Part shown: positions 2,562 through 63,162 of the stretch, one piece after another | Numbering within the stretch: the first letter of the stretch is position 1 | Layout: each line of letters opens with the position of its first letter | Assembly (NCBI GenBank): GCA_947260025.1 | Contig: CAMYON010000001.1 | Coordinates: 11,410-75,409, forward strand | Direction of reading: 5' to 3' | DNA length: 64,000 bases | Origin: an uncultured Gammaproteobacteria bacterium | GTDB taxonomy: Bacteria; Pseudomonadota; Gammaproteobacteria; GCA-001735895 | Program-made: the position numbers and the translations under genes | The notes under the pieces: generated by a model | Told to the model about the DNA's origin: nothing | The model's input: only the letters and a program-made list of their open reading frames with translations | The model's database searches: none

Positions 2562-3800
2562 ATGAATCTTTCAGACTTTGGAGAACGCTTCCGCGGATAC
2601 TCAGGCATAACCCACCTGATGGATGATTTGAGTGAAGGATTGGCGCAACCCGAAGTTGTAATGCTGGGAGGCGGCAATCCCGCTGACATTCCCGAGGTCA
2701 AGGCGATACTCGACACGGTGTTGGTGAAGCTGCAGCAGTCGGGCAGGTTGATCGAAACCCTGGCTAACTATGACGGGCCGCAAGGTAAATCCGGCTTCCT
2801 CGAAACGCTCGCCGATTTTTTTCGGCAGCAATACGGCTGGAACATCAGTAGTCGCAATATAGCCCTGACGCACGGCAGCCAGAGTTCGTTTTTTATTCTG
2901 TTCAATTCGTTTGCGGGCAAGACGGGCTCGTTGCAGAAGCGGGTGCTTATACCACTGGTACCCGAGTACATCGGCTATAGCGACGTCGGCATCGAAGATG
3001 GTCTGATCACCAGTCAGGAAGCTAAAATCCAGCACCTTGAAGACGGATTTTTCAAGTACCTGGTAGATTTCGAACAGTTGCAGGTAGACAAAACAACCGG
3101 GCTGATTTGTGTTTCACGCCCGACTAATCCCAGCGGTAATGTCCTTACCGATGCGGAATGTGCGCAGCTCGACAAAATCGCGCGCCGCCACGACGTTCCG
3201 CTGTTGATCGACAGTGCTTATGGCACCCCGTTCCCCGATATCATTTTCAGCGAGGCCAAGCCGTTCTGGAACGACAACTGTATCGTATGCATGAGCTTGT
3301 CGAAGCTGGGAATGCCGGGAGCGCGCACCGGCATCGTAATCGCCAACGAGGAGGTGATTAAGTATTTTTCGAACATGACCGCGATAACCAGCCTGGCACC
3401 GTCAGGGCTGGGTGCAGAGATCCTCGGTCAGTTAATTGCCGATGATGCCTTGCTCGGCCTTTGTGACGAGATAATACGTCCTTTTTACCGGCAGCGGTCG
3501 GAGTTGGCGGTCAGACTGTTGCGGGAAGCGATTGACGATCCGCGGCTGCATATCCACAAACCCGAAGGTTCGATGTTTTTATGGCTATGGTTCGAAAATC
3601 TTTCCATCAGCAGCAGTGAATTATATCAACGACTAAAGCAGCGGGGCTTGCTGATAGTTCCTGGAAAATATTTCTTCCCGGGTCAGGCGCAGGCGACGCA
3701 GCATGCGGAAAGCTGTGTGCGAATGAACTATGTGCAGAGTGAGGACGAGTTGGCAAAGGGTATCGAAATACTGGCGCGTGAGCTGCGCGCTTGCTGGTAG
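2562..3800 (+). CDS. avtA: Valine--pyruvate aminotransferase (alanine-valine transaminase)
   Basis: MNLSDFGERFRGYSGITHLMDDLSEGL...MLGGGNPADIPEV aligns residue-for-residue with the E. coli AvtA N-terminus (MTFSLFGDKFTRHSGITLLMEDL...MLGGGNPAQIPEM). The start was therefore moved to the internal ATG at 2562 rather than the 2517 track start. Confidence 0.8.
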   Translation: MNLSDFGERFRGYSGITHLMDDLSEGLAQPEVVMLGGGNPADIPEVKAILDTVLVKLQQSGRLIETLANYDGPQGKSGFLETLADFFRQQYGWNISSRNIALTHGSQSSFFILFNSFAGKTGSLQKRVLIPLVPEYIGYSDVGIEDGLITSQEAKIQHLEDGFFKYLVDFEQLQVDKTTGLICVSRPTNPSGNVLTDAECAQLDKIARRHDVPLLIDSAYGTPFPDIIFSEAKPFWNDNCIVCMSLSKLGMPGARTGIVIANEEVIKYFSNMTAITSLAPSGLGAEILGQLIADDALLGLCDEIIRPFYRQRSELAVRLLREAIDDPRLHIHKPEGSMFLWLWFENLSISSSELYQRLKQRGLLIVPGKYFFPGQAQATQHAESCVRMNYVQSEDELAKGIEILARELRACW

Positions 3801-3815
3801 TTTCTGAACCCTGGA

Positions 3816-6047
3816 TTACTTGGTGGTGTGGGTGAACACGCCGTCCCAGTTTTCGCCTGGTGGCTCCCTGCGATAAACCGCGATTCGATCGAGGTACACT
3901 TGATAAAGCAGGCGCTCGGGGTGACTGCGGTTAAGGTTAAAGAAATCGGGCTCCGCCTTGTCCCATGACTGGGCGCGGAAATACCTTAATGCCTGCTTGT
4001 AAGCGGTAAGCTCTGAAGTAACCGATTTATCCAGATCATTCTTATGACCAACCGGTTCGAATATTGCTACCGGTTCATTCTTGCCCTTGACCCGCACCAG
4101 GTCGAGTTCCCGAAATACAAACTCGGGAATCGCATCCTTGGTGGTTTCGCTGACGATAATATTAGTCCCGTAGTTTTTGGTCAGGCCCTCGAGCCTCGAG
4201 CCGAGGTTGACCGCGTCACCGAGCACCGTGTAGGCCATGCGAAATTCCGAACCCATGTTACCGACGTTCATGTTACCGGTGTTTATCCCGATGCCGATAT
4301 CGACCTCTGGCCAGCCGTTCCGTTTGAAATCTTCCTGCATTATCTTGAGTTCGTTCATCATTTCCAGCGCCGCGTAAAGCGCATGCCTGGCATGCTCGGA
4401 ATCGACCAATGGCGCGCCCCAGAATGACATGATGGCGTCACCCATGTACTTGTCGATGGTGCCGCGATTCTTATGAATCACCCTGGTCATGGGGGTTAGC
4501 AGCGCGTTCATTAGCTGGGTGAGCTGTTTTGGGTCCATTCCTTCGGAAATGGAGGTAAAGCCACGCACGTCGGAAAACAAAACAGTCATTTCGCGATTTT
4601 CACCCTCGAGCGAGTATTCCTCGGGCGACTCGCTCATCTCGTCGACCAGTTCCGGTGGAATGTAATGGCCAAACAGATGGGCAAGCTGGCGCTTGCCGCG
4701 CGACTCGATAAAGAACCCGTAAGACATGTGCAGGATGAACATCAGCAGGATCAGCAACAGGGGACTGGCTAACGGTAGTATCAGATTGGCATTCCAGGCG
4801 ATAAAGGTGCCCGCCAGCACGACTACTGTCAGGGCGAGCGTTCCCGCGGCTGCGAGTAGCGGAGAAAGCAGGGGCAGCAGTAAGGCCATGGCGATAGCTA
4901 TAATTACCAGCAGCACAAACTCGTAACCGATCGTCCATGCCACCTTGTGTTTAATGCGATCGTCGAGAACGCCGGAAATGATATTAGCGTGAACCTCTAC
5001 TCCGGGATAAATGTTTTGTACCGGTGTCGAGCGCAGGTCGAGTAATCCCGGAGCCGTAGTGCCAACCAGCACGATTTTATCCTTCAGCGCCATGGGGTCG
5101 GTTTTACCGCTAAGTACCTCGTGAGCCGGGATATACGGAAAGCTGCCCTGTTGTCCGCGGTAGGGCACGAACACCGCGCCATTGGCGTCGACCGGGATGT
5201 GATAATCCTTGAGTTTAATCGTTTCGAGTGCGTAATAATCCTTGTCACCGCGCGTGCCCTCGGTTTTAACCTCCAGTTCGACCCCTGCAGAATCGAAGTA
5301 AGCCTGGGTGACGGCTAGCGCCAGCGAGGCAAACAAGTAGCCGTCGTAGGACTGCACCAGGGGTACGCGGCGAAATACGCCATCGGCGTCGACAAAAGGG
5401 TTATCGAAGTAACCGCCTGACCCGGCTGAAGATTGCAGTATCTCGAGGTTACCAGCGTAGCCGACTGCGTTGTTGATGGGCAGGCGTTCGCTCCACTGCA
5501 TGTCCATCCTTGTTAATGCTGGCGGCAGCAGGCCGGTAACCCCGTTTTCGCCTTGCTGCAGTTTCGACTTGAAGTAATACCCGAGAACGACATTTTTACC
5601 GATCAGGCTGTCGGCGAAGATCTCGTCATGCTTGAGGCTGGGGCGAATTTCGTCGAGCGCCTGTTGATACTGTGCATTATTCTTGAGCGAAGTCTGCGCC
5701 AGCTGTTCAAACATTTCCAGACCCGAACTCGTGTCTTTCTCTGCGAAAACAATATCGAAACCCACGACGTCGGCTTGATAGAGATTGAACAGGTTGTCGA
5801 CGATGGTCGCGAGCTTGTCCCGACCCCAGGGCCAGCGGCCAACTTCGGCCAGCGAGTTCTCATCGATATCGACAATGACGATGCGCTCGTCGATAGTATC
5901 GCTACGAGTGAAATTGAGCCTGGCATCGTAGGTCCAGTCCTCGAGTTGCTTGATAAACGGGTATTGGTAAAGCCCCGAGGTATCGATCAGCAACACAAGC
6001 AGGATGAAGGCGCTAAGTACCAGCCTGATTATGCGCTGTAGTTGCAT
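3816..6047 (-). CDS. CHASE2 sensor domain-containing class III adenylate cyclase
   Basis: 743 aa. It has an N-terminal signal/TM segment and a periplasmic CHASE2-like region, then a hydrophobic multi-TM block. The C-terminal cyclase domain carries LFSDVRGFTSISE...GTIDKYMGDAIMSFWGAP. The Lys in DKYMGD is the adenine-specifying position, so it reads as AC-type rather than GC-type. Confidence 0.8.
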   Translation of the reverse strand: MQLQRIIRLVLSAFILLVLLIDTSGLYQYPFIKQLEDWTYDARLNFTRSDTIDERIVIVDIDENSLAEVGRWPWGRDKLATIVDNLFNLYQADVVGFDIVFAEKDTSSGLEMFEQLAQTSLKNNAQYQQALDEIRPSLKHDEIFADSLIGKNVVLGYYFKSKLQQGENGVTGLLPPALTRMDMQWSERLPINNAVGYAGNLEILQSSAGSGGYFDNPFVDADGVFRRVPLVQSYDGYLFASLALAVTQAYFDSAGVELEVKTEGTRGDKDYYALETIKLKDYHIPVDANGAVFVPYRGQQGSFPYIPAHEVLSGKTDPMALKDKIVLVGTTAPGLLDLRSTPVQNIYPGVEVHANIISGVLDDRIKHKVAWTIGYEFVLLVIIAIAMALLLPLLSPLLAAAGTLALTVVVLAGTFIAWNANLILPLASPLLLILLMFILHMSYGFFIESRGKRQLAHLFGHYIPPELVDEMSESPEEYSLEGENREMTVLFSDVRGFTSISEGMDPKQLTQLMNALLTPMTRVIHKNRGTIDKYMGDAIMSFWGAPLVDSEHARHALYAALEMMNELKIMQEDFKRNGWPEVDIGIGINTGNMNVGNMGSEFRMAYTVLGDAVNLGSRLEGLTKNYGTNIIVSETTKDAIPEFVFRELDLVRVKGKNEPVAIFEPVGHKNDLDKSVTSELTAYKQALRYFRAQSWDKAEPDFFNLNRSHPERLLYQVYLDRIAVYRREPPGENWDGVFTHTTK

Positions 6048-6090
6048 TTATGCTCCCGGGTGGAGTTCGGACGAGCAGAATTGAGATTTG

Positions 6091-6813
6091 TTACTTGAGG
6101 TAGAATTCCATCTTTACGCCAGCGACTTCGATGATGTCGTGGCTTTTGAGTTCGTGTGCGTTTGATCCGATTGGTGAGCCGCCAACTTTAGGCACGCTAT
6201 TATTTGGGCCACCATCGACGTGAATCAGAAAAAATCCCTGAGGCCGGCGGGTAATAGCCGCTACCTGCACCCCGGGTTGACCAATCGTGGTCAGTGCCTT
6301 GGTCAGTACCAGTTCCTTACCGGCGTTGGCGCCGCTGAGTAATTGCAGGCAGGCTTCCCTGTTCGCCATCGGTGAAGCGGCGGTCGTGGCTGCCTCGGAA
6401 GCGATAGCGGCAGAAATTTTCTGTACCGACTTGTCAATCTCCTTGCCACCAGCTTCTTCGGGCATTCCAGCTTCGCCCGGGCGTATGATCATGGTTTGCT
6501 CGAAATCCTGCTCACCGCCGCCGGAATTGTTTTGGTAGGTAATCTGATACTTGCCAAGCGTAATATTGTCGCCGTTTTCCAGGGCATGCTTTTTGACCAG
6601 TTTGCCGTTAACGTAGGTGCCATTGGTGCTGCCCAGGTCTTCCAGGAATGAATCTTCAAGAATGGTAATGACCTGCGCATGTCTGCCACTGACAGACAAA
6701 TTATCGATTTGTATGTCATTGCCTGGTTTGCGCCCAATCGTAGTTGTTTCGTTGACCAACTCGTACTCGGTTTTTTCGCCCGTGCTTGATGTAGTGATCA
6801 GTTTTGCGACCAT
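6091..6813 (-). CDS. FHA domain protein (N-terminal canonical FHA, C-terminal degenerate FHA-like domain)
   Basis: The N-terminus has TTIGRKPGNDIQIDNLSVSGRHAQV...GSTNGTYVNGKLV, which carries the G-R, S-x-x-H and N-G FHA motifs. A low-complexity Gly/Ala/Glu linker follows. The C-terminus has a second beta-rich FHA-like domain (TTIGQPG...IEVAGVKMEF) that lacks the SxxH/NG motifs. Confidence 0.75.
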   Translation of the reverse strand: MVAKLITTSSTGEKTEYELVNETTTIGRKPGNDIQIDNLSVSGRHAQVITILEDSFLEDLGSTNGTYVNGKLVKKHALENGDNITLGKYQITYQNNSGGGEQDFEQTMIIRPGEAGMPEEAGGKEIDKSVQKISAAIASEAATTAASPMANREACLQLLSGANAGKELVLTKALTTIGQPGVQVAAITRRPQGFFLIHVDGGPNNSVPKVGGSPIGSNAHELKSHDIIEVAGVKMEFYLK

Positions 6814-6857
6814 GTTATTATCCAGCCTCTAGAGTAGTTTCTACTGGGTGTATTCCG

Positions 6858-7682
6858 TTAATCGAACCAAGCGGCAAACTTTTTAAACCAGCCCTGCTTG
6901 GTCGAAAAATCTTCGTCAATTCGGCACAGCATTACCGAAATATTGTCCTTTCCGCCATTCTGGTTTGCCTTTGTAATCAATTGCTTGGCAGCTTCTTCTA
7001 GATTAGCACTAAATTCCTTAATAGTGTAGTCTATATCTTCATCTTCAACCAGATCGGTTAGTCCGTCTGAACATAGCAGATATATATCATTTTTCAGGAC
7101 TATATCTTCCTGAATGTCTGGCATGACGATTGGATCGATGCCCAGGGCACGCGTAACGAGGTTTTTATTCATCGAGTTACGGGCCTCTTCGGGCGTATAG
7201 AATCCGCGATCAATGAGCTCCTGCAGCAGCGAGTGATCCTTGGTAATTTGCTCAAACTTGTCGTTACGCAGTCGATAGCAGCGTGAATCGCCTATGTGGG
7301 CGAGTGAAAAGGAATTGTTGTAAAACTGCAGCACCACGATGGTCGTCCCCATACCCTTGTGTTCTGCGTTATCTTCGGCTGTCTTGTAGACAAGTTCGTT
7401 AGCGGCGACAACGGCGTCCTGAATGCAAATCGACTCCAGCGAGAAGCCGCTGGCATCGTCTATCTCTCCGGGAGTGATTTCGGGCAGACGCTGTTGCAGC
7501 AGCTCGATGATGGTGTCGACGGTCATGCTGCTGGCTATTTCGCCGCCGCGATGTCCGCCCATGCCATCCGCTAGCACCACGAGACCCAGCGCGCTGTCGT
7601 AACCTATCGCGTCCTCGTTCTTGCTACGAACCATGCCGGTATCGGTCAAGCCTTTTATCGTTATCTTGTTTTGCAAGTTCAT
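6858..7682 (-). CDS. PP2C-family Ser/Thr protein phosphatase
   Basis: 274 aa with GMVRSKNEDAIGYD, LADGMGGHRGGEIAS and a DG..D metal-binding signature typical of bacterial PP2C (Stp1/PppA-like). Confidence 0.85.
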   Translation of the reverse strand: MNLQNKITIKGLTDTGMVRSKNEDAIGYDSALGLVVLADGMGGHRGGEIASSMTVDTIIELLQQRLPEITPGEIDDASGFSLESICIQDAVVAANELVYKTAEDNAEHKGMGTTIVVLQFYNNSFSLAHIGDSRCYRLRNDKFEQITKDHSLLQELIDRGFYTPEEARNSMNKNLVTRALGIDPIVMPDIQEDIVLKNDIYLLCSDGLTDLVEDEDIDYTIKEFSANLEEAAKQLITKANQNGGKDNISVMLCRIDEDFSTKQGWFKKFAAWFD

Positions 7683-7695
7683 ATGACTGCCAAGA

Positions 7696-10416
7696 CTAGC
7701 TCTTTAAAAACGCTTTTAGCGCATTCGCAAATTCAATTCCGGTTTGAAAGCGCTGCTCCACGTCCTTGATCAAAGACTTGTTGATAACCGCCGACAAGGG
7801 CTCCGGTACCTCGGGGCGAATCGTTCTGACATCCGCCGCTTCCTCGTTGGTAATTTTAAACATCAGGCTGGCCATTGAGTCGGCTTTGAACGGCAACGAG
7901 CCCGACAGCATCTGGTACAACATGACACCCAACGAGAACAGGTCGGAACGGCCGTCAACTTTTTTACCGGCCAACTGCTCTGGCGACATGTACGAGGGTG
8001 TGCCCAGTACCGTGCCGGTTTTGGTTTTACTTGAATCGGTGATGCGAGCGATGCCGAAATCGGTGATCTTGACGGTATCGGATTCCGGTTCATACATAAT
8101 GTTTGCCGGCTTGATGTCGCGGTGCACGACGTTTTGTCGATGCGCGTAATCGAGACCCTCGGCGGCACGTGCAACGATACTTAGTACCAGGCGCATTTTC
8201 AACAAGTTATCGGGTTTGCAATATCTCGCGAGATCGTGCCCCTGCAGGAATTCCATCGCAATGTAGGCCAGGTCGTGCTCTTCCCCGGCGTCATAAATGG
8301 TAACGATATTGGGATGATTGAGGCGGCCCGCGGTCTCGGCTTCACGGAAGAACCGCTGCTTGACCTCTTCCAGTTCGTCGGCATCGAATTCCTGGGCCAG
8401 CGCCAGGGTCTTGATCGCAACCACGCGGCTTATTTTTGGGTCCTTGCCGAGATAGACGATACCCATCGCACCCTTGCCGAGTTCTTTTTCAACTTCGTAG
8501 CGACCCAGCATCGGTTTCTCGACACCATCCTGGTCCAGCATCAGGGTGCCGCCGGCGTGAGCGCCGCTGCTACCCAGCATGACGGTATCTTCCAATTTCT
8601 GCGCCCGGTTCATTCTGTTTTCGACGTCACGGAAGCCTTTCTCGTGCTTGGTCATGTACTGGTACACCGAGGTGGCCTTGTTAAACTGGCGCTTGCGTTC
8701 GAAATCGAGCGCCAGGTTATACATGGCCTCCAGCACCTGCTCATCGACCGGGCTGCATTTGCGGAACTTTTCGAATGCCATGTCGAGCTGCCCCTGGGTT
8801 TGAAACGCTATACCCAGCATCCGATTACTCTCGGCTGATTCCTCGTCCGACCTTGCCTTGCCGCGCTCGGTCACCAGGAAGCGCTTGGTCGTGATCAGCA
8901 GGTACCCGATGACCAGCAGGGCTCCAGGCGTCATCACCTGGACCCACATGGTGTTGCTGGTCATCAACAAGTAGTGCGTGACCACCAGCGCCAACACCAG
9001 CATCAGTGAGACGACAAACGCGACTCCAGCCTTGAGACGCGGCATCAACAGCATCAGGTAAAAGGCAACCAGCAGAAAAACGCCCAGGCGAGCCCAGAAA
9101 CCCCACTCCGGTTCGATAAAGAAATCCTCGTTGAGTATGCTCGAAACCGAGTGCGCCAGCGTCAGTACCGGTGCCATCGAAGGATTGATAGGCGTTACCT
9201 GGGGAGTACCGACACCGGTTGCCGTGGGCCCGATCAAGACGATTTTATCCTTGTATTTCTCGATAGGAATCTTGCCGGTAAATACGTCGTAGTAAGAATC
9301 TACCGAGAAGGCGGGAAACCCCTGGTTATCAGAGTAGAAAAAGGTATTCATTTGTAGCTGCGAGTCGGTCTTGATGGCCAACGATCCCAGTTCCACGCTC
9401 TCGCCAAGATTTATCCGTATATCGTTAACGTCGAGGTTAAGACTTCTGGCTGCAATCTGCAGCGATATGGAAGGATAGTAGCGATCGTAATGCAGCATTA
9501 CCAGAGGTTCAGAGCGGACGCCGCCATCAGGATCCGGCAGCTTGTTCAAATGGCCAATTGCCGAGGCAAACTGACCGACGTCGTCGATTGGCGGTAACGC
9601 GGCAACGGTGGAGACGGGGTACAACCCGTTAGCCTGTGCAGATACTCGGTCGCGCACCTGGTTGATTGAATTATTGAGCACGAAACCGGGCAGCTCTGCA
9701 TCCGGATTGCCGCGTGGAATACCCGGGTAAAACAGCATTGCCAGCACAACGTTGCTGGCATTTTCGATACTGGCCGCTAGCTTGGCATCGGTGTTGAGCG
9801 CCTGCTCGGCCTCGAACAGGCTCGATTTCAGGGTTTCGATGTCCTGACTGAGGCGTGTATTCATACTGGATTGCAGGTAAAACTCGAGAATTTCGGTGAC
9901 CGCCTGGTTGTTACCTTCGAACTCCAGCATTGCTCCTAACGCGTCGACATCTGCGGCTATATCGCCAAAACTGGCATTGGAGAAAAACTCGATTAGTTCG
10001 CGGATGTACAGTGCTCCAGGATCTATTTGCGGTTCCAGAAAAAATACGGTCTGACCAATGACCTTGGCACCACCCTCGGACAGGCGGTTGATCAGTTCGG
10101 CATGCAGATCTCGCGGCCAGGGCCAGCGGCCAATATTATCGATACTTGCATCGTCGATAGCGATTACGGCAATTTTTTCGGTAGGTTGACGGTCGGTAGA
10201 TCGGACACCCCAGTCGTAGAAGCTGCGTTCGAGACTCTGGAACGGGGCTGCTCCCGAAAACAGGACCACCACGATGGTAATCATCAGCCCAGCGAACCAG
10301 TCGCTACTCCAAAAACGGGTTCTCATACCGTCTCCATAGTTCAAATTATTATTAGCCGTCCTGCTGTTTATCGTGGTTTCTTGCAGGACTTGCGACTGGA
10401 TAAAACCAGATTCCAA
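7696..10416 (-). CDS. CHASE2 sensor domain-containing Ser/Thr protein kinase
   Basis: 906 aa. It has an N-terminal TM segment and a periplasmic CHASE2-like domain (IAVIAIDDASIDNIGRWPWPRD), then a TM segment and a helical/TPR-like region. The C-terminal Hanks kinase domain carries GKGAMGIVYLGKD...AIK...HRDIKPANIM...DFG. The true start may be the internal Met (MRTRFWSSDWFAG) about 30 codons downstream. Confidence 0.85.
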   Translation of the reverse strand: MESGFIQSQVLQETTINSRTANNNLNYGDGMRTRFWSSDWFAGLMITIVVVLFSGAAPFQSLERSFYDWGVRSTDRQPTEKIAVIAIDDASIDNIGRWPWPRDLHAELINRLSEGGAKVIGQTVFFLEPQIDPGALYIRELIEFFSNASFGDIAADVDALGAMLEFEGNNQAVTEILEFYLQSSMNTRLSQDIETLKSSLFEAEQALNTDAKLAASIENASNVVLAMLFYPGIPRGNPDAELPGFVLNNSINQVRDRVSAQANGLYPVSTVAALPPIDDVGQFASAIGHLNKLPDPDGGVRSEPLVMLHYDRYYPSISLQIAARSLNLDVNDIRINLGESVELGSLAIKTDSQLQMNTFFYSDNQGFPAFSVDSYYDVFTGKIPIEKYKDKIVLIGPTATGVGTPQVTPINPSMAPVLTLAHSVSSILNEDFFIEPEWGFWARLGVFLLVAFYLMLLMPRLKAGVAFVVSLMLVLALVVTHYLLMTSNTMWVQVMTPGALLVIGYLLITTKRFLVTERGKARSDEESAESNRMLGIAFQTQGQLDMAFEKFRKCSPVDEQVLEAMYNLALDFERKRQFNKATSVYQYMTKHEKGFRDVENRMNRAQKLEDTVMLGSSGAHAGGTLMLDQDGVEKPMLGRYEVEKELGKGAMGIVYLGKDPKISRVVAIKTLALAQEFDADELEEVKQRFFREAETAGRLNHPNIVTIYDAGEEHDLAYIAMEFLQGHDLARYCKPDNLLKMRLVLSIVARAAEGLDYAHRQNVVHRDIKPANIMYEPESDTVKITDFGIARITDSSKTKTGTVLGTPSYMSPEQLAGKKVDGRSDLFSLGVMLYQMLSGSLPFKADSMASLMFKITNEEAADVRTIRPEVPEPLSAVINKSLIKDVEQRFQTGIEFANALKAFLKS

Positions 10417-10662
10417 ATCGTATATTATTCAATAGTTTATACGATCACCATGAACTGGTTAACAGCTAGAAGTCTACGCGCCCACCAATTAAATCGCGAT
10501 GGCCTTAGACTATAAGGTTGTATGCCCTTTTTTACCAGAGCTAAGCCCTAAAAAGTTGATTAAGATTTCCAATTTGAAATGCTCGTTAATTGACCTGGAC
10601 TTGATTCGATCTGCGTCTGATTATCCCGTTTCCCCTTTGCAGGTCGGGTATCGACAAATGTC

Positions 10663-10828
10663 AGAATTGCTCCGGAGAATCGAACGGCTTGAGGATCAGC
10701 ACATCGATCCGGATATATTTGAAGTCTTCATCCGTGAAAGGGTTTGCCTGGACTATGCGGAAGCGTTTCTGGATCCAGAACAGATAGATGAGATCGATGA
10801 AAGCCTGATACCAGGTTATGCAGGCTAG
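10663..10828 (+). CDS. Hypothetical small acidic protein (MSELLRRIERLEDQHIDPDIFEVF...); alternative longer ORF from 10499
   Basis: It lies in the AT-rich gap between the STK and cNMP-rhodanese genes, on the opposite strand. I recognise no family. The start is ambiguous, the Shine-Dalgarno is weak, and the coding potential is uncertain. Confidence 0.2.
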
Positions 10829-10852
10829 TCGCCAAATGATGCCTGCAGAGAA

Positions 10853-11908
10853 TCAGGCGGTTTCGAGATCGGAAGGCTCGGCAGTATCGACTCCGTCCCT
10901 TAATACGTAAGTTTCGATATCTTTTTCGTTTAGCAGAAATGAGGCGGCCGAGCTGCGGCGACCGGTGTCACAGTAAATGACGTATTTCTTGTCGGTATCG
11001 AGTGAATTTGCTTTCATGCGTAAAAAAATCAACGGAATGTTGATACTGCCCTTGATGTGTTTGGCCTTGTGCTCGGTCGGCAAGCGCACATCGAACCAGA
11101 CCGCACCTTCCGCCACCAGCTTCTTGCCTTCATCGTACTCGACCCAGTTAAGTAGCGGTTCGTTGAGCAGAGAGTTGAAATCCTCCTTGTTCAGTCGCAT
11201 CAGGTGGCCATCGGTAAGCATGGTAATGGTAGCGTTACGTTTGCTGTCGGAAATCAGGGCTTCCTCACCGAAGCTGTCTCCAACCGACAGGGTTGCAAGT
11301 TTGACACCGTTGGGATTGGCGGGTGTCGACCGGGTTACCAGGCAGCGACCTTCCTTGATGATGTAAAAGTAGTCACCCTCGGCATCCTGCTCGATGACTT
11401 TATCTCCGGGTTTATAGCTTACCGATTCCATGCGCATGAACATTGCCTGGATGTTGGCCGGTGGGATGCGATGAAAAGCCCGGGTTTGAAGGATTCGCGT
11501 CATCCAGTCGGTTTCGTCGTCATCTTCGTCGACTGCTTCAACCGAGTAACTGCCGGTTTGATCCCAGGTCAACATGATATCGAGCATGTCGCTATTGATC
11601 TTGGTGATTACGACAGCGGATTTGGCGCGTGCCGAAACCGGGCGCGGAAAGCCGTGAGCGATTGGCTGCAGCCCGTCTGGCGAGCCCGCCTTGATGACCT
11701 TTACCACTTTCTTGTCCTGCAGCAGTTCGATTTCACCCTGGAGCAGGTAAACATGAACCTTGTCCAGGTCACCTTTCTTGAAAATATAGTGGCCTGACTG
11801 TAACGGGGTAGCGGATATTTTTTTGATTAATTCTTGAGCGTTTTCAGGATTCAGAGAATTGATCGGGGAAAGTGATTTTATTTGATTGGGATCAATTTCA
11901 AGGCTCAT
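10853..11908 (-). CDS. Tandem cyclic-nucleotide-binding (CAP_ED) domain protein fused to a C-terminal rhodanese domain
   Basis: It has two cNMP-binding beta-barrel regions (..YIFKKGDLDKVHVYLLQGEIEL.. and ..GDYFYIIKEGRCLV...GDSFGEEALIS..). The C-terminal rhodanese domain has an intact active-site loop, YCDTGRRS (Cys-X4-Arg). Confidence 0.8.
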   Translation of the reverse strand: MSLEIDPNQIKSLSPINSLNPENAQELIKKISATPLQSGHYIFKKGDLDKVHVYLLQGEIELLQDKKVVKVIKAGSPDGLQPIAHGFPRPVSARAKSAVVITKINSDMLDIMLTWDQTGSYSVEAVDEDDDETDWMTRILQTRAFHRIPPANIQAMFMRMESVSYKPGDKVIEQDAEGDYFYIIKEGRCLVTRSTPANPNGVKLATLSVGDSFGEEALISDSKRNATITMLTDGHLMRLNKEDFNSLLNEPLLNWVEYDEGKKLVAEGAVWFDVRLPTEHKAKHIKGSINIPLIFLRMKANSLDTDKKYVIYCDTGRRSSAASFLLNEKDIETYVLRDGVDTAEPSDLETA

Positions 11909-12024
11909 GTCTTATTCGGGAATCCTTTGCATGCAGCATAAATAAATCGCTATTTTGGCGCTTGGTACCCGATAAAGCAACTACTGCAACCAAATAATCG
12001 AAGTGGGTCACAGTCCGTCCAATA

Positions 12025-13845
12025 TTATCCCGATTGGCTTGTTATATCCACGTAGAGCTTGAGCTTCTGACCGGGTTGCAGGTATTTGCCGATTCGATTC
12101 CAGCGTTTGATGTCGGCCACGCGGATATTAAAGCGATCCGCGATGCGATGCAGTGAATCTCCCTTGCGGACGGTGTAGCGCAGCGCATGCAGTGCATTGC
12201 TGGGGCGCGTCTGGTTGATACTGACGGTCTGCGACAGCTTGCCTCTGGTCCATACCACCAGTTTCTGGCCAACGCGCAGCGTATCGATCGGCGCCATCCC
12301 GTTCCACTTGGCCAGTGCCTTGGTGGTGACGCCGTAGTTTCTGGATATACTCCACAGGCTCTGACCGGGCCGGACGATGTGCACCTGCTTGGTACCCGAA
12401 CGATTGGTATTCTGAATTTGAGCGATGCGAGAATTTTCGCTTAGCGTGTAGCTTTTCAGCGACTTGGTTGCGGTGGGAACCATCAGGTACTTGCCGGCAC
12501 GGATATTGGTGCCGCGTATATTGTTGACGTCCTTTATCAGGGCAACAGAGGTCCGGTACTTGTTCGAGATATGGCTCAGGGTTTCGCCGTTTCTGATCTT
12601 GTGCCGTACCCAGTTGATTCGCTTGCTCGGCGGTACCTTGGCGACCTCAATCTTGAATTGCTCTGCGCTGCCGCGCGGCAGTAGTAATCGATGCGGGCCG
12701 TTGGGCGCCGTTGCCCAGCGATTGAATGCCGGATTCAACTGGTATAGCTGGTTAACCGAAATACCGGCGAGATCTGCCGCCAGTGCCAGGTCGATCTGAC
12801 CATCGAGTTCGACGATTTCGTAGCTGACCTGGTTGCCAACCGGGACCAGGTCTAACTGGTACTTCTCGGGATGGGCGAACAATTCCTTGAGGGCGAACAT
12901 CTTGGGCACGTAGTTACGGGTTTCCTTGCGAATCCTGGTCAGGTGCCAGAAATCCGTGGGACGCTTGCGCTTCTTGTTGTAACGCACGGCGCTACGTATC
13001 TTGCCGGGACCGGCATTGTAGGCGGCCAGCGCCAGTTCCCAATCGCCGTTGAACTGGCGTGCGAGGCTGTCCAGGTAGCTTATTGCGGCGTGTGTCGATT
13101 CGATGATATCGCGGCGACCATCGTACCACCAGTTTTGCTTGAGCCCGAGGAAACGGCCCGTCGACGGAATAATCTGCCACATGCCCGAAGCGCGGCCGTG
13201 CGAGTAGGCGAAGGCCTGGTAAGCGGATTCCACGATCGGCAACAGGGCCAGTTCGGTCGGCAGGCCGCGTTGCTCTAGTTCGTCGAGGACGAAAGGTAAA
13301 ATCGGCCGAGCGCGCTCCATCACGCGCTGCATGTAACCCGGATGGTCGAGAAACCACTTGAGCTGCGCCCTGACCCGGGGATTATCAACCGCCGCCATTT
13401 GCATGCCATTTTGCAGCCGGTACCAGGCGTTATGCTTGTTGCGGGTTTCCGCTAGCGAAGCCTTGATCGCGGCCACTACCGCGGCTTCTTCCTGTTGCTG
13501 TTTTTCAAGCGCCAGTGCGGTCTGCGCTGCTTCAAATTCATAATCGACGGGCAGCGACCTTGCTACTGGTTCGGGCTCGGTTGAATCTGTAGGCCCGGTT
13601 GAATCTGGTCGGCTCTCCATCGAAACGACGGTAGCGGCGGAATAATCGTCTGTTTCCAGCGGTGATGCCGCGGTTGCCGGGGATGCGGAAATCTGGGATT
13701 CCAACGGGGTCGCTAGCGCTGTTGCAGCCTCGTTTTGCCTGGTTGGAGCGGTGCCCGTACTCGCGCACCCGGCTAGCATCAACACGATCAATGCGGCGGC
13801 AAATATATTCCTTTCCCCGAAAAGGGGCTGATGCTTGATAAACAT
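12025..13845 (-). CDS. mltD: Membrane-bound lytic murein transglycosylase D with C-terminal LysM repeats
   Basis: It has a lipoprotein-like N-terminus (LAGCAS) and an SLT catalytic region (ESAYQAFAYSHGRASGMWQIIPSTG...AYNAGPGKI). Several LysM repeats follow (e.g. YTVRKGDSLHRIADRFNI). Confidence 0.85.
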   Translation of the reverse strand: MFIKHQPLFGERNIFAAALIVLMLAGCASTGTAPTRQNEAATALATPLESQISASPATAASPLETDDYSAATVVSMESRPDSTGPTDSTEPEPVARSLPVDYEFEAAQTALALEKQQQEEAAVVAAIKASLAETRNKHNAWYRLQNGMQMAAVDNPRVRAQLKWFLDHPGYMQRVMERARPILPFVLDELEQRGLPTELALLPIVESAYQAFAYSHGRASGMWQIIPSTGRFLGLKQNWWYDGRRDIIESTHAAISYLDSLARQFNGDWELALAAYNAGPGKIRSAVRYNKKRKRPTDFWHLTRIRKETRNYVPKMFALKELFAHPEKYQLDLVPVGNQVSYEIVELDGQIDLALAADLAGISVNQLYQLNPAFNRWATAPNGPHRLLLPRGSAEQFKIEVAKVPPSKRINWVRHKIRNGETLSHISNKYRTSVALIKDVNNIRGTNIRAGKYLMVPTATKSLKSYTLSENSRIAQIQNTNRSGTKQVHIVRPGQSLWSISRNYGVTTKALAKWNGMAPIDTLRVGQKLVVWTRGKLSQTVSINQTRPSNALHALRYTVRKGDSLHRIADRFNIRVADIKRWNRIGKYLQPGQKLKLYVDITSQSG

Positions 13846-16480: not shown

Positions 16481-16595
<115 letters not shown>

Positions 16596-30778: not shown

Positions 30779-31240
30779 ATGACGCCGAATCCCATCGTCA
30801 ATCCGGTTTCCATCGATGAAGATCATATCCATGTTGTTGCCGCGATAATCTGGAACCAGCTTCAGCCTGACCGGTTTCTGATAGCGCAACGTCAAAAGGG
30901 CAAACATCTCGAAGACTATTGGGAACTACCCGGCGGTAAACTGGAACCTGGAGAGACCGCCTGGCAAGCTTTGCAGCGTGAGATTACCGAGGAAATCAGC
31001 ATTCGGGTGATCGCGGCATCCCCTTACATGAGGGTTTACTTTCGTTATCCGGAGCGCAATATTTTACTCGATACCTGGGTCGTTGATGATTACCGGGGCG
31101 AAGTCGAAGCCAGGGAACAGCAGCCTGTCGCCTGGATTGGTTCGAACGAAATAGATTGCTACCGCTTCCCGCCGGCAGATATACCGATTCTTGACGCTAT
31201 AAAGTACAGCGCGAAAGCAGGAACTCGACGTCTTCCTTGA
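30779..31240 (+). CDS. mutT: Nudix hydrolase, 8-oxo-dGTP diphosphatase-like
   Basis: The Nudix box is GGKLEPGETAWQALQREITEEISI. Its position downstream of secA-argJ matches mutT. Confidence 0.75.
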   Translation: MTPNPIVNPVSIDEDHIHVVAAIIWNQLQPDRFLIAQRQKGKHLEDYWELPGGKLEPGETAWQALQREITEEISIRVIAASPYMRVYFRYPERNILLDTWVVDDYRGEVEAREQQPVAWIGSNEIDCYRFPPADIPILDAIKYSAKAGTRRLP

Positions 31241-31970
31241 CCTGGGTTGGAACCGCGGTAATCGAATTCACGCGCATGAACCTGACCGAGTAGCGGTGCT
31301 TGCCGGCGCTGATCTCCGGGTATATCAGTTCGTCTGCAGCGATACCGATGCGAATCAACTGGGTCGATTGCTTGGTATCCAGAGGCTTTTGGTAAAATCC
31401 CTTATCCGCGACCACCGGCCTGGAAGCGGCGCTGTCGCGAATGGTTTTCAGGACCAATTCGATTACTTCCTCCAGCCGACAGTAGGGCTCGACCCATTCC
31501 TGCAGGTTGGCAACCCGCTCCTCGTGCTCCCGGTTCAGCCAGAAACGCAGCTGTGGCAGATCGAAATCGCAGGAGCCGCCGGGTATCGAGGTACGCTGTT
31601 TGATGCCCAGCAAGAAATCGTCACGTTTTAAATGCTCGCCCAGTTTGCCATCGAGACGATGCAGTCGTTCCAGCGCATCCTTCTGCTTACTCAGTATGAT
31701 GTCGAGCTTCGAGTGATCGATTTCCTGATGCTTGCTTAGCGCTTTGAGCGCACCGTGCTGGCGCTCCAGCTCCTTCATAAGCTCCTGCTTGAGATCCCCA
31801 CGTTCCAGCAACGAGGTAAGCTCGAGAATGGTCAGCAGTGCGCTATAAGCGCTCCAGTCGCCTTTCAACGCTTCGAAGTAATGAAAGCGTTTCATCAGGG
31901 TTTCGACTCGCAAACACATACGGATGCGTTCGTTTAATGGCTGCTCGAATGTTTGGTATCTGCCCGACAT
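31197..31970 (-). CDS. zapD: Cell division protein ZapD (YacF)
   Basis: 257 aa. MSGRYQTFEQPLNERIRMCLRVETLMKRFHYF matches the ZapD family N-terminus. It is convergent with mutT, and its 3' end overlaps mutT by about 44 nt. Confidence 0.8.
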   Translation of the reverse strand: MSGRYQTFEQPLNERIRMCLRVETLMKRFHYFEALKGDWSAYSALLTILELTSLLERGDLKQELMKELERQHGALKALSKHQEIDHSKLDIILSKQKDALERLHRLDGKLGEHLKRDDFLLGIKQRTSIPGGSCDFDLPQLRFWLNREHEERVANLQEWVEPYCRLEEVIELVLKTIRDSAASRPVVADKGFYQKPLDTKQSTQLIRIGIAADELIYPEISAGKHRYSVRFMRVNSITAVPTQVKEDVEFLLSRCTL

Positions 31971-32056
31971 CGCTCGTGAAGTAATGCAAAACCCTTAAAG
32001 TATAGCCGAAAACAATAGGTTAATGTCGACGCTACGAATGCGAGCCTGACCTATTT

Positions 32057-32656
32057 TCATTGACTCGACATCTGCAAGTAAAGCTGGTGCAACGATTCGA
32101 CCTGGGACTCAAGGTCGGCGTCTATGGATCGATTATCGATGATATCGTGAGCCCGTGCTATTCGCTCGTCGTTGGACAACTGCTGTGCCAGCATTTTGCG
32201 TGCCAGCGCCTCATCGATATGGTCTCGCTTGATCAGGCGCTCGATTTGTTGCTCCGCCGGGCAGTCAACCACCAGAATCCGGTCGACCAGTGATTGAAAA
32301 TTGGTTTCGAACAGCAGCGGTATTACGACCAGGACATAGTTCGCGGTCGAGTAAGCGGCAATCGCATCATGACTGCGTTGAAAGATCAAGGGATGCAGCA
32401 TGGTCTCTAGCCAGGATTTCTCGTCACGCTGACTAAAAACGATTTCGCGTAACCGGCTACGATCGATTGCTCCATCGGATTTGATTATACGATCGCCAAA
32501 ATGTGCGCAGACCTGATCAAAGGCAAGTTCACCCGGCTCCAGCAATTTACGGCTGATAACGTCGGTATCGACCACGGGAACCTCGAGCCTGGTAAACAGG
32601 TTGCTGATCGTGGTTTTACCCGACGCGATGCCCCCTGTTAATCCGACTGCAAACAT
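32057..32656 (-). CDS. coaE: Dephospho-CoA kinase
   Basis: It has MFAVGLTGGIASGKTT (P-loop) and sits downstream of pilD, as in Pseudomonas and E. coli. Confidence 0.9.
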   Translation of the reverse strand: MFAVGLTGGIASGKTTISNLFTRLEVPVVDTDVISRKLLEPGELAFDQVCAHFGDRIIKSDGAIDRSRLREIVFSQRDEKSWLETMLHPLIFQRSHDAIAAYSTANYVLVVIPLLFETNFQSLVDRILVVDCPAEQQIERLIKRDHIDEALARKMLAQQLSNDERIARAHDIIDNRSIDADLESQVESLHQLYLQMSSQ

Positions 32657-32671
32657 GGCATTAACGACTGG

Positions 32672-33547
32672 CTATAAACCGAAAAGTGAATAGTAAAACT
32701 GCATCAGCTCATTACCCCACAGCAGGGTCATCCAGCCCGCCGCGGCGAGATAGGGGCCAAAAGGAATCTGGGTGCCGCGCTCGGTCATTTTCAGCAGGAT
32801 CATGCCGATACCGATGAAAGCGCCAACCAGGGAAGAGGTCAGGATAACCACGAACAGCGGCTTCCAGCCAAGCCATGCGCCAAGCATCGCAAGCAGCTTG
32901 AAATCGCCGTGCCCCATGCCTTCCTTGCCGGTTACCAGCTTGAACAGGATATACACGCTCCATAAGCTCATATAGCCTGCCATCGCGCCCATCACGCTGG
33001 ATTCGAGATCGACGAACACGTTGAACAGGGACAGCAGGATACCGAGCCACAGCAGGGGCAGGGTGATGCTGTCGGGTAACAGTTTATGTCCGATATCGAT
33101 ACCGCTGGCGGCGATCAGGCACCAGCTTAAAAACAGGGCTGCAAGCGCCTGCAGGCTGACGCCGAAATGCCAGCCAACGACCACCGAAACCAGCGCGGTG
33201 AACAGCTCCACCAGCGGGTACTGCAGCGATATACGGGTGTTGCAGCTGGAGCATTTGCCGCCCAAAACCAGGTAGCTAACAATCGGTATGTTTTCGAGTA
33301 CCGTGATTTGATGGCCGCACTGCCCGCAACGCGAGCGGGGGGTGCTGAGGTTGAACTTTTCGCTCCCGGCTTCGGCCGGTTGCTCGAGAAACTCGAGGCA
33401 GTCATGGCGCCATTCGCGCTGCATCATGACCGGCAGGCGGTAAATTACGACGTTCAGAAAACTGCCGACCGCGGCCCCGAAAACGAACAGGGTGGCGAGA
33501 TAGACAACCGGCTGCTGTTCGAACAGAGAGATAAAGGGATCGAACAA
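32672..33547 (-). CDS. pilD: Type IV prepilin leader peptidase / N-methyltransferase (A24 family)
   Basis: It has the tetracysteine motif CGQCGH...CSSC in cytoplasmic loop 1 and a multi-TM A24 peptidase architecture. Confidence 0.9.
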   Translation of the reverse strand: MFDPFISLFEQQPVVYLATLFVFGAAVGSFLNVVIYRLPVMMQREWRHDCLEFLEQPAEAGSEKFNLSTPRSRCGQCGHQITVLENIPIVSYLVLGGKCSSCNTRISLQYPLVELFTALVSVVVGWHFGVSLQALAALFLSWCLIAASGIDIGHKLLPDSITLPLLWLGILLSLFNVFVDLESSVMGAMAGYMSLWSVYILFKLVTGKEGMGHGDFKLLAMLGAWLGWKPLFVVILTSSLVGAFIGIGMILLKMTERGTQIPFGPYLAAAGWMTLLWGNELMQFYYSLFGL

Positions 33548-33558
33548 GCAGCTGTACC

Positions 33559-34782
33559 TTAGACCACGGCACCCAGTTTGAAGATCGGCAGGTACATCGC
33601 CACGATCAGGCCGCCGACGAGTACGCCGAGAACAGCCATGATGATCGGTTCCAGCAGCGAGGTTAAAGCGTCAACCGCGTTGTCGACCTCGGCCTCGTAA
33701 AAATCCGCGACCTTTGCCAGCATGGCATCGAGCGAACCGGCTTCCTCACCGATCGAAACCATCTGGATCGCCATATTGGGAAACAACCCGGTATTGCGCA
33801 TCGAGGTCTGTAGTTGCGTACCCTGGGAAACCTCGTCCCTGATCTTCAGGCTCGCGTTGTGATAAATGATGTTGCCGGTAGCACCGGCCACCGATTCCAT
33901 CGCCTCGACCAGCGGCACACCGGCCGCCGACATGGTTTCCAGCGTGCGCGCGAAGCGGGCGATCGCGGACTTGGTCGCGATTTCCCCGACCACCGGCGCT
34001 TTTAACGCCATCCGGTCCCAGGATTCCTGTAACTTCGGGGAAGTCTTCTTGATCCTGAAAAACACGTAGACCCCGCCGGCGATACCACCTGCAATCACCC
34101 ACCACCAGTCTTGCATGAACTCTGACAGATCGATGACGAACCGGGTCAGTGCCGGCAGATCGGCGCCGAACGAGTTGAACAGTTCCTCGAACTGGGGTAC
34201 GACGAATACCAGCAGAATAACGGTTACCACGAACGCGACGATCAAAACCGCTATCGGGTAAAACAGCGCCTTTTTCACCTTGGCCTTCAGGGCTTCGACT
34301 TTCTCCTTGTAGGTCGCCAGCTTGTCCAGCATGGTTTCGAGCGCACCCGATTGTTCGCCGGCGTTGACCAGGTTGATGAACAGCGGATCGAAGTAAAGTG
34401 GCTCCTTGGACAGTGCTTCCGCCAGCCCGACACCGCCCTCGACCTCGTTCTTGATGCCCATGATGAGTTTTTGCATCGACTGGTTGTCGCTACCCTGGGC
34501 GATGATTTCGAAGGATTGTACCAGCGGTACGCCCGCCGACATCATGGTTGCCATCTGGCGTGCAAATATCGAGATATCGGAGGGTGTAATTTTCTGGGCA
34601 CCACCAAACAGCGCTTTCGGCTTTTTCTTGACCTTGAGCGGGTTAATGCCCTGCTTGCGCAGTTCGTTCTTGGCCAGCGCATCGTTAAGCGCGAATATTT
34701 CTCCCTTAACCTTCGAGCCCCCACGATTGGTGCCTTCGTAGAGAAATTCTATTTTTTCAGCCGTTGCTGCTTTCGCTGCCAT
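33559..34782 (-). CDS. pilC: Type IV pilus inner-membrane platform protein PilC (GspF family)
   Basis: 407 aa with duplicated GspF domains and three TM segments. Confidence 0.9.
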   Translation of the reverse strand: MAAKAATAEKIEFLYEGTNRGGSKVKGEIFALNDALAKNELRKQGINPLKVKKKPKALFGGAQKITPSDISIFARQMATMMSAGVPLVQSFEIIAQGSDNQSMQKLIMGIKNEVEGGVGLAEALSKEPLYFDPLFINLVNAGEQSGALETMLDKLATYKEKVEALKAKVKKALFYPIAVLIVAFVVTVILLVFVVPQFEELFNSFGADLPALTRFVIDLSEFMQDWWWVIAGGIAGGVYVFFRIKKTSPKLQESWDRMALKAPVVGEIATKSAIARFARTLETMSAAGVPLVEAMESVAGATGNIIYHNASLKIRDEVSQGTQLQTSMRNTGLFPNMAIQMVSIGEEAGSLDAMLAKVADFYEAEVDNAVDALTSLLEPIIMAVLGVLVGGLIVAMYLPIFKLGAVV

Positions 34783-34785
34783 GGT

Positions 34786-43945: not shown

Positions 43946-45106
43946 TTGCAGCAGCAGGAACTCGTTGCATTTCTCTACCATCGCTTCCGCTTCGGCATCT
44001 TCATTACTACCTTCGTATCACTGCTTGCGGCTTCGCTGGCATACGTGGAATTGTCGATTCAGGGTCGCGAATACTGGGTTGTCGGATGGTTCGGACTGCT
44101 CTGCGTGGTCCTGCTGGTACGTTGGCGCGGGCTGCAGCGTTTCCTCAGTATTCGCAACAAGTCGTTTTATCCTTACCGGCTCTGGCATCAGCGATTCTTT
44201 GTCGGCGTTGTGATTACCGGCCTGGTTCTCGGTGGCGGTGCCGCGATTTTGATGCCTTACATAACGGCCAACGTGCAAATTATCCTGCATGCGATGTTGT
44301 TGACGATGTGTGCCGGCGCGATCGCCTACCTGTCGACCTCGTTCGGGGTATATATTTCCTACATGGTGACGATGATGGCACCGGTTACGATCTGGTTGTT
44401 TTTACAGAATAATCCAACCAGTTATGTGCTCAGTTGCCTGTATATATTTTTCATGATTGCCGGCTGGATTAGCGTAAAGCGCATGAACCAGCTGGTGCAT
44501 GACGCGCTCTACTATCGTTACGACAACGAGGCCCTGATCGAGGACCTGCAGCGCCTGCTCGAATCGGTGTCGCAAAGTAACAAGGCGCTGGAAAAAATCT
44601 CGACCACCGACGAACTAACCGGGCTTTTCAACTACCGCGCTTTCCGGGTTCACCTGGAAGACACCTGGCGTCAGTTTCAGGGCAACAACTTACCGATTTC
44701 GTTGATAAAACTGAATATCGATTACTACCACGAATTCAACGCGCACTACGGGCTGGACACCGGCGATCGCTACCTGCGCCAGGTTGCCACCATGCTGGGC
44801 AACCAGATTTCGCATCAAAGCCAGATGGCGGCGCGCCTGCATGGTGCCGAATTTGCGTTGCTGTTGCCCGGGATCAGTTGCGAAAATGCGCGTCAAATCG
44901 CTGCGGGCATCATGCAGGAACTGGCGCAGCAAGAAATCGAACATGCCAAGTCTCGCGTGGGTCCTTACCTGACCATGAGTGTCGGTCTCGGCAGCCAGAA
45001 CGTGAAGCCCGGCTCATCGTCGCGCGAATTGTTGGGCCGGGTCGATACCGCGCTCAAGCTAGCCTCGGAACGCGGTCGCAACCGGCTCGAAGTGCTCGAA
45101 GGTTAA
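43946..45106 (+). CDS. Multi-TM membrane protein with C-terminal degenerate GGDEF domain (HGAEF in place of GGDEF)
   Basis: The N-terminal ~200 aa is hydrophobic with 6-7 TM segments. The GGDEF fold ([13 protein letters not shown]...) has the signature motif reading [13 protein letters not shown], so Gly1 becomes His and the Asp/Glu becomes Ala. Confidence 0.7.
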
Positions 45107-63150: not shown

Positions 63151-63162
63151 GTGGTTCTCCAT

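Follow-up and report, generated by a model that had tools for sequence, protein, structure and literature searches.

Gene content and organization of the locus

The window analyzed here is a 64,000-nucleotide (nt) stretch of the genome of an uncultured Gammaproteobacteria bacterium (assembly GCA_947260025.1, contig CAMYON010000001.1, positions 11,410 to 75,409). At window positions 3816 to 11908 it carries a signaling locus in which genes for Ser/Thr phosphorylation stand beside genes predicted to make and bind cyclic adenosine monophosphate (cAMP). Four minus-strand genes stand close together, with 13, 44, and 43 nt between them, and encode in the direction of transcription a CHASE2-sensor Hanks-type Ser/Thr kinase of 876 amino acids (aa; 7696–10326), a PP2C-type Ser/Thr phosphatase of 274 aa (6858–7682), a tandem-FHA protein of 240 aa (6091–6813), and a CHASE2-sensor class IIIb adenylate cyclase of 743 aa (3816–6047). 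A fifth minus-strand gene (10853–11908) encodes a 351-aa protein with two cyclic-nucleotide monophosphate (cNMP)-binding domains and a rhodanese domain; it lies 526 nt upstream of the kinase gene, outside the tight packing. Within this gap, on the plus strand, is a 56-codon remnant of a gene for a GAF+HD-GYP protein (10658–10828), recognized by tblastn with the 530-aa protein of a related locus, L001.

A first-pass annotation, made from the letters of the DNA alone, had described five co-directional genes in an operon-like unit. The list of open reading frames (ORFs) confirms five minus-strand ORFs over 3816–11908, and every domain named in that annotation was found by Pfam or by structure. 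The five-gene operon did not hold up: the locus consists of four genes that form a unit, a reader gene that stands apart, and what is left of a divergent sixth gene. Relatives carry the gene of this remnant at full length, and the ancestral locus therefore held six genes.

The non-coding region between the kinase start and the remnant start (10327–10657) is presumably the old divergent promoter region and is near-identical in L094 and L095, the nearest related loci. Its part upstream of the kinase gene (10327–10560) is almost identical to the DNA of these two loci, the adjoining coding DNA being more divergent, and may contain conserved regulatory sequence. On the other side, a thioesterase gene (2015–2416) and an aminotransferase gene (about 2562–3800) lie between fabI and the cluster.

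The sensor enzymes, the phosphatase, and the cNMP-rhodanese protein

The cyclase matches the Pfam families CHASE2 (2e-58, 198.4 bits) and Guanylate_cyc (PF00211; 1.8e-22, 80.2 bits against a cut-off of 21.9). It consists of one N-terminal transmembrane helix, a periplasmic CHASE2 domain, three transmembrane helices, the cyclase domain, and, at the C terminus, a conserved tail of 60 aa; hydropathy peaks at residues 3–21, 377–395, about 406–426, and 422–440 flank CHASE2 in this one-plus-three pattern. We know of no ligand for CHASE2. Among solved structures, the best relatives of the cyclase domain are Pseudomonas aeruginosa CyaB (3R5G, E 3e-35) and Synechocystis Cya2 (2W01, 6.7e-34). An engineered Cya2-based chimera (6FHT) scores slightly better than CyaB, which is the closest natural solved relative.

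Alignment to CyaB and Cya2 places the motifs FSDVRGFT, MGDAIM, IDKYMGD, AYTVLG, and AVNLGSRLE, which we take, by published class III numbering, to supply the two metal-binding aspartates, the substrate-binding lysine and threonine, and the transition-state asparagine and arginine. The Lys/Thr substrate pair is typical of adenine-specific class IIIb cyclases and is common to CyaB and the cyclase of this locus, although CyaB carries a MASE2 membrane domain rather than CHASE2. The catalytic machinery thus looks intact, and synthesis of cAMP is predicted.

The kinase resembles the cyclase in its membrane topology, with one N-terminal and three post-sensor hydrophobic segments. A transmembrane helix, the CHASE2 domain (1.6e-49), and three transmembrane helices are followed by a conserved linker of ~120 aa that has no Pfam match and by a C-terminal kinase domain (Pkinase 2.3e-57, 194.8 bits). 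The kinase motifs are present in the translation: the Gly-loop GKGAMG, VAIK, HRDIKPAN, DFG (as DFGIA), and SPE. Judged by these motifs, the active-site residues of the kinase, like those of the cyclase, look intact. The ORF extends to a TTG at 10416, but the most likely start is the ATG at 10326, behind a GGAGA ribosome-binding site, which gives a protein of 876 aa; the kinase lengths of 874–878 aa found in relatives fit this start. The phosphatase matches Pfam PP2C (6.6e-14) and exceeds the curated cut-off of the Stp1/IreP family NF033484, with 251 bits against 230; for the other proteins, NCBIfam gave generic domain matches only.

The cNMP-rhodanese protein matches cNMP_binding (3.4e-27, in two stretches) and Rhodanese (1.5e-12). 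Its first cNMP domain is degenerate and lacks the phosphate-binding cassette. The second retains an intact cassette (FGEEAL...KRNAT) in which G214, E215, R224, and A226 are invariant. In the rhodanese active-site loop, C313-D-T-G-R-R-S, the cysteine, R317, R318, and S319 are likewise invariant. Both the cassette and the Cys loop are kept without change across gamma- and betaproteobacterial homologues of 33–38% identity. The match of the rhodanese domain to the PspE model is a domain-level one (39.7 bits against a cut-off of 102). On these sequence features, the protein is a candidate cAMP receptor.

The tandem-FHA protein

The N-terminal domain of the 240-aa protein (residues 1–95) is a clear FHA domain (PF00498, 1.2e-21, 77.3 bits), and Pfam finds no domain in the last 120 aa. 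Modeled by AlphaFold from 44 homologues, the protein has two confident beta-sandwich domains joined by a low-confidence linker of ~50 residues (about 100–150). When modeled alone, the C-terminal domain (153–240) reached a predicted local distance difference test score (pLDDT) of 88.5, and Foldseek matched it to the FHA domains of OdhI and GarA with template modeling (TM) scores of 0.73–0.78 and an E value of 2e-5. Its sequence profile also reaches OdhI/GarA, at E 1e-3. The earlier description of the protein as dual-FHA is therefore right by the structure and profile match of the C-terminal domain, with a qualification: two FHA folds are present, but Pfam sees one, and the second lacks the canonical phosphothreonine-binding residues.

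The two domains differ accordingly in their conserved positions. In the N-terminal FHA domain, G27, R28, S42, H45, T63, N64, and G65 are invariant in the 44 homologues. In the C-terminal fold, Gly-Arg is replaced by Gly-Gln in this protein and by Gly-Lys in the consensus, and there is no Ser-x-x-His. The linker contains a conserved motif, [DE]-F-E-K-T107-M-[VI]-[IL]-R-P, whose threonine is kept in 38 of the 44 homologues; isoleucine, leucine, methionine, or valine stands at position +3 in 35 of them. A hydrophobic residue at +3 of phosphothreonine is the context preferred by many FHA domains.

This protein family is large, with 353 clusters at 50% identity below E 1e-30. By sequence identity, the putative adaptor ranks with the best-conserved proteins encoded here: it is 92–93% identical to its counterpart in L001, against 67–70% for the CHASE2 domains, which are the least conserved part of the locus. 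It is also 98% identical to the protein of L090, a related locus in which the adjacent DNA is only about 70–78% identical, and this contrast indicates that the small FHA protein is probably under unusually strong purifying selection.

Gene order and gene decay in close relatives

About 90 related loci of uncultured Gammaproteobacteria were obtained by look-ups and by a metagenome scan with the cluster proteins as bait, so that relatives without the whole cluster could not appear among them. Every locus of sufficient length has the same order: mltD, cNMP-rhodanese, GAF-HD-GYP on the opposite strand where present, kinase, PP2C, FHA, cyclase, and aminotransferase.

The HD-GYP gene illustrates how the locus has decayed. 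In L001, L003, and L090, full-length GAF+HD-GYP genes (~530 aa) occupy exactly the position of the remnant. Against the gap of the window, the 530-aa protein of L001 aligns only at residues 1–13 (77% identity) and 463–529 (52% identity, E 7e-20). The remnant thus consists of the first 11–12 codons fused in frame to the last ~44, about 1.4 kb with both domains having been deleted, and the 56-codon ORF has no Pfam match. L090 (GCA_976014215.1) itself has a kinase split into 707 and 133 aa, a lon gene in three pieces, and a fabI gene apparently missing beside an over-long ppiD call; these split genes suggest frameshift errors in the assembly rather than biology.

The HD-GYP gene is truly decaying in this lineage, and an assembly artifact is not the explanation, because L094 and L095, whose cNMP protein is 97% identical to that of the window, carry a different and smaller internal deletion in the same gene. 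The exact allele is unconfirmed elsewhere: a 26-nt pattern across the deletion junction had no match in metagenome contigs of the Joint Genome Institute (JGI), and exact-sequence look-ups of the cNMP protein, the cyclase, the kinase, and the 56-aa remnant returned no identical entry on record. Two GGDEF proteins, one with a receiver domain, are encoded elsewhere in the window (43946–45106, plus strand; 50370–51299, minus strand), and the genome thus keeps cyclic di-GMP (c-di-GMP) signaling despite the dead HD-GYP gene of the cluster.

Losses of this kind recur. The gap is spanned by 52 related loci, of which 28 have an HD-GYP gene of intact length, 10 have a remnant, and 14 lack the gene. The kinase gene has shrunk, to a kinase-domain fragment or in some other way, in L128, L130–L132, L139, L142, L153, L162, L163, and L165, all of which retain intact PP2C, FHA, cyclase, and cNMP-rhodanese genes. 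For example, the kinase of L132 is a 186-aa fragment with HCD for HRD and no N-lobe, and its HD-GYP gene is gone; its cNMP-rhodanese, PP2C, and cyclase genes are intact, and its FHA protein is 96–98% identical by domain to that of the window. Where other members have been lost, as in L132 and L153, these four proteins retain 76–100% domain identity. The HD-GYP and kinase genes have therefore been lost repeatedly within the clade, with PP2C, FHA, and cyclase persisting.

Distribution in Gammaproteobacteria and Betaproteobacteria

A profile scan with one genome per species gave 80 more distant loci, at 33–54% identity, in which neighbors of the FHA gene were counted by domain-wise tblastn. These are the best 80 of at least 565 confirmed matches and not a random sample, and the tblastn thresholds may miss divergent domains. 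Clustering of the neighborhood ORFs produced many shadow ORFs in loci of high GC content, which were filtered by overlap.

In 75 of 77 loci, the gene directly upstream of FHA encodes PP2C, and the two form an almost invariant pair in the Gamma- and Betaproteobacteria surveyed. A kinase gene stands upstream of PP2C in 47 of 74 loci, with a CHASE2-kinase in 22 of 70, and a CHASE2-cyclase gene follows downstream in 16 of 65. All four core genes occur together in 12 of 60 loci, mostly betaproteobacterial. Half of the loci (34/68) carry a metallo-beta-lactamase (MBL)-fold, class-II-like cAMP phosphodiesterase gene as a neighbor. Less frequent neighbors are a GAF-MshEN-T2SSE (PilB/GspE-like) ATPase (17/68), GAF-HD-GYP (7/68), and cNMP-rhodanese (4/68). 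Thus, the genes grouped in the first-pass annotation do co-occur elsewhere, in the same order in close relatives and as a core of four in some distant loci; the cNMP-rhodanese and GAF-HD-GYP genes recur in distant species as well, but in a different arrangement.

In Burkholderiales and their relatives, the genes form one co-directional array of kinase, PP2C, FHA, cyclase, phosphodiesterase (255 aa), in some cases cNMP-rhodanese, GAF-ATPase (about 800 aa), and GAF-HD-GYP. Examples are L011 (9020–16846) and L047 (8754–15780), together with L017, L019, L028, L037, and L087. The fusion of GAF to a secretion or pilus ATPase is unusual, and no description of it was found. In two other loci (L072, 3249–8696; L086, 3484–8684), two tandem PP2C and tandem-FHA pairs flank a kinase gene on the opposite strand, which indicates a duplication of the core pair.

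Among the 80 loci, the PP2C/FHA pair recurs with kinases, with cyclic-nucleotide genes, and otherwise only with housekeeping genes (sucCD, radA, alr, dnaB, rplI, and rnr). That the association is kept across changes of gene order between the two classes argues for functional linkage of the genes and not mere inherited adjacency.

A proposed link between phosphorylation and cAMP

On balance, we regard the locus as probably a vertically inherited signaling locus, ancestrally of six genes, that links Ser/Thr phosphorylation to cAMP through a tandem-FHA adaptor. The cNMP-rhodanese protein, which is intact, and the GAF-HD-GYP phosphodiesterase, which is destroyed in this genome, are taken to be its cyclic-nucleotide readers. 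The kinase and the PP2C phosphatase would set the phosphorylation of T107 (pT-x-x-I/L) in the FHA linker, or alternatively that of a kinase or cyclase site. The resulting phosphothreonine would be bound by the canonical N-terminal FHA domain, and the C-terminal FHA fold, lacking phosphate-binding residues, would hold a partner independently of phosphorylation. In this way, the adaptor may switch cAMP synthesis by the adjoining cyclase or, in relatives that carry a cAMP phosphodiesterase, cAMP turnover. The cAMP would then reach its readers, the second cNMP domain of the rhodanese fusion and, in relatives, also GAF proteins, whose predicted binding of cAMP would act on c-di-GMP hydrolysis and on a PilB-like ATPase.

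Several points weigh against this account. The cyclase adjoins the PP2C-FHA pair in only about a quarter of the wider loci, so the main role of the core pair may lie outside cAMP control, and the pair may work with other kinases and other targets. In close relatives, the kinase gene is full length in 27 and reduced in 10 of the 37 loci that span it; as PP2C, FHA, and cyclase persist there, the adjacent kinase is not indispensable. T107 is replaced in 6 of the 44 homologues. Co-transcription of the four genes is inferred from their spacing, and a promoter and terminator scan of 3500–12200 gave counts equal to the shuffled expectation, with no signal above chance, and is thus uninformative on operon structure.

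In a different reading, the PP2C/tandem-FHA pair is a general phospho-adaptor with a target unrelated to cAMP, and the cyclase, cNMP-rhodanese, and HD-GYP genes are independent signaling genes that inheritance has left nearby in a decaying locus. The sparse association in wider loci (a cyclase adjacent in 16 of 65, all four genes in 12 of 60), the remnant or absent HD-GYP gene in 24 of 52 close relatives, the reduced kinase in 10 of 37, and the dead HD-GYP gene of the window itself all accord with it. On the other side, families related to cAMP are the only non-housekeeping neighbors of the pair besides kinases, and they recur in both classes in different orders. Moreover, PP2C, FHA, cyclase, and cNMP-rhodanese stay intact in relatives such as L132 and L153 from which other members have been lost. 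We consider a general adaptor of this kind rather unlikely, though a serious alternative.

Extending the phosphorylation–cAMP link beyond the close relatives is a more tentative step. In such a system, widespread in Gamma- and Betaproteobacteria, a PP2C/tandem-FHA phospho-switch would gate cAMP synthesis by CHASE2-cyclases or cAMP breakdown, and the cAMP would drive rhodanese, HD-GYP, and PilB-like ATPase outputs. This generalization is possible, but we propose it with reserve.

Probable inheritance in place

The first-pass annotation had placed the cluster as an island in a strain-variable slot between fabI and mltD. A recently acquired island would be consistent with a slight dip in GC content to 0.47–0.50 over the PP2C/FHA and cNMP genes, and with the differing content of relatives beyond the aminotransferase gene, where L001 has sulfite reductase and L002 a peptide ABC transporter. 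This variation falls outside the cluster, however, and every relative long enough to cover the site, among the loci fetched with cluster proteins as bait, has the cluster there, even where the cNMP protein is only 70% identical. Its genes (GC 0.49–0.54; GC at third codon positions 0.58–0.67) and their codon usage are inside the range of the flanking housekeeping genes. Scans of the window found no tRNA and no rRNA genes, and no integrase, transposase, or other mobile-element genes are among its annotated ORFs; flanking direct repeats were not searched for. For the loci so sampled, the island is therefore largely refuted and very improbable, and, as part of the account favored above, the cluster was probably inherited vertically in place rather than inserted.

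Relation to known systems

The presence of a cyclase beside a cNMP-binding protein also recalls Pycsar anti-phage systems, in which a cyclase makes a cyclic nucleotide for a cNMP-binding effector. In PADLOC, the cyclase matches PycC (1.1e-32) and the cNMP domain matches Pycsar effectors (1.9e-10), both at domain level, and the kinase matches the PD-T4-6 and Mad6 kinase models, but all of these are confined to generic catalytic or binding domains. The cyclase has the adenylate-type IIIb Lys/Thr pair and an extracytoplasmic CHASE2 sensor, the putative effector domain is a rhodanese and not a TIR domain or membrane toxin, and the stable position among housekeeping neighbors across a wide clade is unlike that of defense islands. 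A role in defense is thus highly improbable.

What is understood of proteobacterial triads of Hanks kinase, PP2C, and FHA protein comes mainly from type VI secretion. It is equally improbable that this locus is a threonine-phosphorylation pathway of the PpkA/PppA/Fha1 type for a type VI secretion system (T6SS) encoded elsewhere. In favor of it, a membrane Hanks kinase, a PP2C phosphatase, and an FHA protein are combined on the same plan, TagH is weakly matched (TIGR03354, 9.8e-12), and one JGI source labels a homologue "predicted component of type VI protein secretion system." Against it, the TagH match reaches 45.4 bits against a cut-off of 120.25 and covers the FHA domain alone, the 240-aa protein has a second FHA fold where Fha1/TagH has a long C-terminal region, and T6SS genes are absent from the window ORFs scanned, as had been noted at first reading, and from the recurrent neighbors of the 80 loci.

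As a parallel, the T6SS pathway PpkA/PppA/Fha1(TagH) of P. aeruginosa and Agrobacterium remains instructive (PMC3953482, PMC5995506). There, too, a PP2C phosphatase is encoded together with a membrane-bound Hanks kinase whose sensor is extracytoplasmic and with an FHA phosphothreonine reader that serves as a switch. The present locus differs in lacking T6SS genes and in its CHASE2 kinase sensor, its C-terminal kinase domain, its 240-aa tandem-FHA protein, and its cAMP-linked outputs. The closest parallel for the adaptor is Mycobacterium tuberculosis Rv1747, in which PknF phosphorylates threonines of the unstructured linker that connects two FHA domains (PMC8339232). Both proteins have the order FHA-1, disordered linker with a conserved threonine, and FHA-2, and a partner Hanks kinase. 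Unlike Rv1747, the protein described here stands alone with no ABC-transporter fusion, its second FHA domain lacks the phosphothreonine-binding residues, and the phosphorylation of T107 is only inferred.

GarA and OdhI of Actinobacteria, the top fold and profile matches of the C-terminal domain, are also small FHA proteins, in which the FHA domain binds the protein's own phosphorylated Thr motif outside it. They have a single FHA domain, regulate enzymes of the tricarboxylic acid cycle, and are only 21–24% identical (NF041660, 67.5 bits against a cut-off of 200). DgcB of Bdellovibrio bacteriovorus (FHA-GGDEF; 6HBZ, 6HC0, 6HC1), another fold match to the C-terminal domain, offers a precedent for an FHA domain that recognizes a phosphorylated tail and controls a second-messenger synthase. 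DgcB makes c-di-GMP and joins FHA domain and synthase in one polypeptide; in the present locus, the two are encoded by different genes, and cAMP is the predicted messenger.

For the sensor enzymes, CHASE2 cyclases have been described in Sinorhizobium meliloti (CyaD1, CyaD2, and CyaK; PMC13001267) and in a Campylobacterota cluster with phosphodiesterase, FecR, and TPR genes (PMC9239204), and CHASE2 kinases in cyanobacteria (PMC2176072). The cyclases share with the present one the arrangement of CHASE2, transmembrane segments, and class III cyclase domain, and a phosphodiesterase is a frequent neighbor in the wider family here as well. Those cyclase systems were described without a Hanks kinase, PP2C, or FHA protein, and the present locus has no FecR or TPR genes.

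Every component family is familiar. No description of these genes as a unit was found in the literature searched, which agrees so far with the impression recorded in the first-pass annotation; the searchable literature is incomplete, and a prior description is possible. Within that scope, this is a real signaling locus that is uncharacterized as a conserved combination, as are its cNMP-rhodanese reader and its stand-alone tandem-FHA adaptor.

Other features of the window

A standard type IV pilus block on the minus strand (31197–36492) comprises pilB (MshEN+T2SSE, without GAF), pilC, pilD, coaE, and zapD and is followed by pilS/pilR (37702–40655, minus strand); the block lies ~23 kb from the cluster, with no evident link to it. 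A cobalamin riboswitch (85 bits; 63238–63374, minus strand) stands directly upstream of a TonB-dependent receptor gene (61192–63162, minus strand), an ordinary arrangement for B12 uptake. The gene for a bacterial small signal recognition particle RNA (16490–16585, plus strand) lies between smpB and dnaX.

Significance

The locus offers a second, widely conserved use of the kinase/PP2C/FHA triad, one that is genetically tied to the synthesis and breakdown of cAMP and to cyclic-nucleotide readers. It opens a testable route to how Ser/Thr phosphorylation and cyclic nucleotides are integrated in bacteria, to the role of a cNMP-gated rhodanese, and to the reason for the repeated loss of HD-GYP and kinase genes in environmental populations. 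Cultured carriers are found among the more distant relatives, namely Chitinimonas, Acidovorax, Rubrivivax, and Methylotenera, which makes experiments feasible; two such carriers are Chitinimonas viridis CECT 7703 (L047) and Acidovorax delafieldii DSM 64 (L064). If the wider proposal is true, it would provide a cNMP-gated rhodanese sulfurtransferase, a GAF-gated HD-GYP protein that connects cAMP to c-di-GMP, and a GAF-gated PilB-like ATPase. It would also reveal a direct wiring of eukaryote-like phosphorylation to bacterial cyclic-nucleotide signaling, with components that are lost modularly in natural populations.

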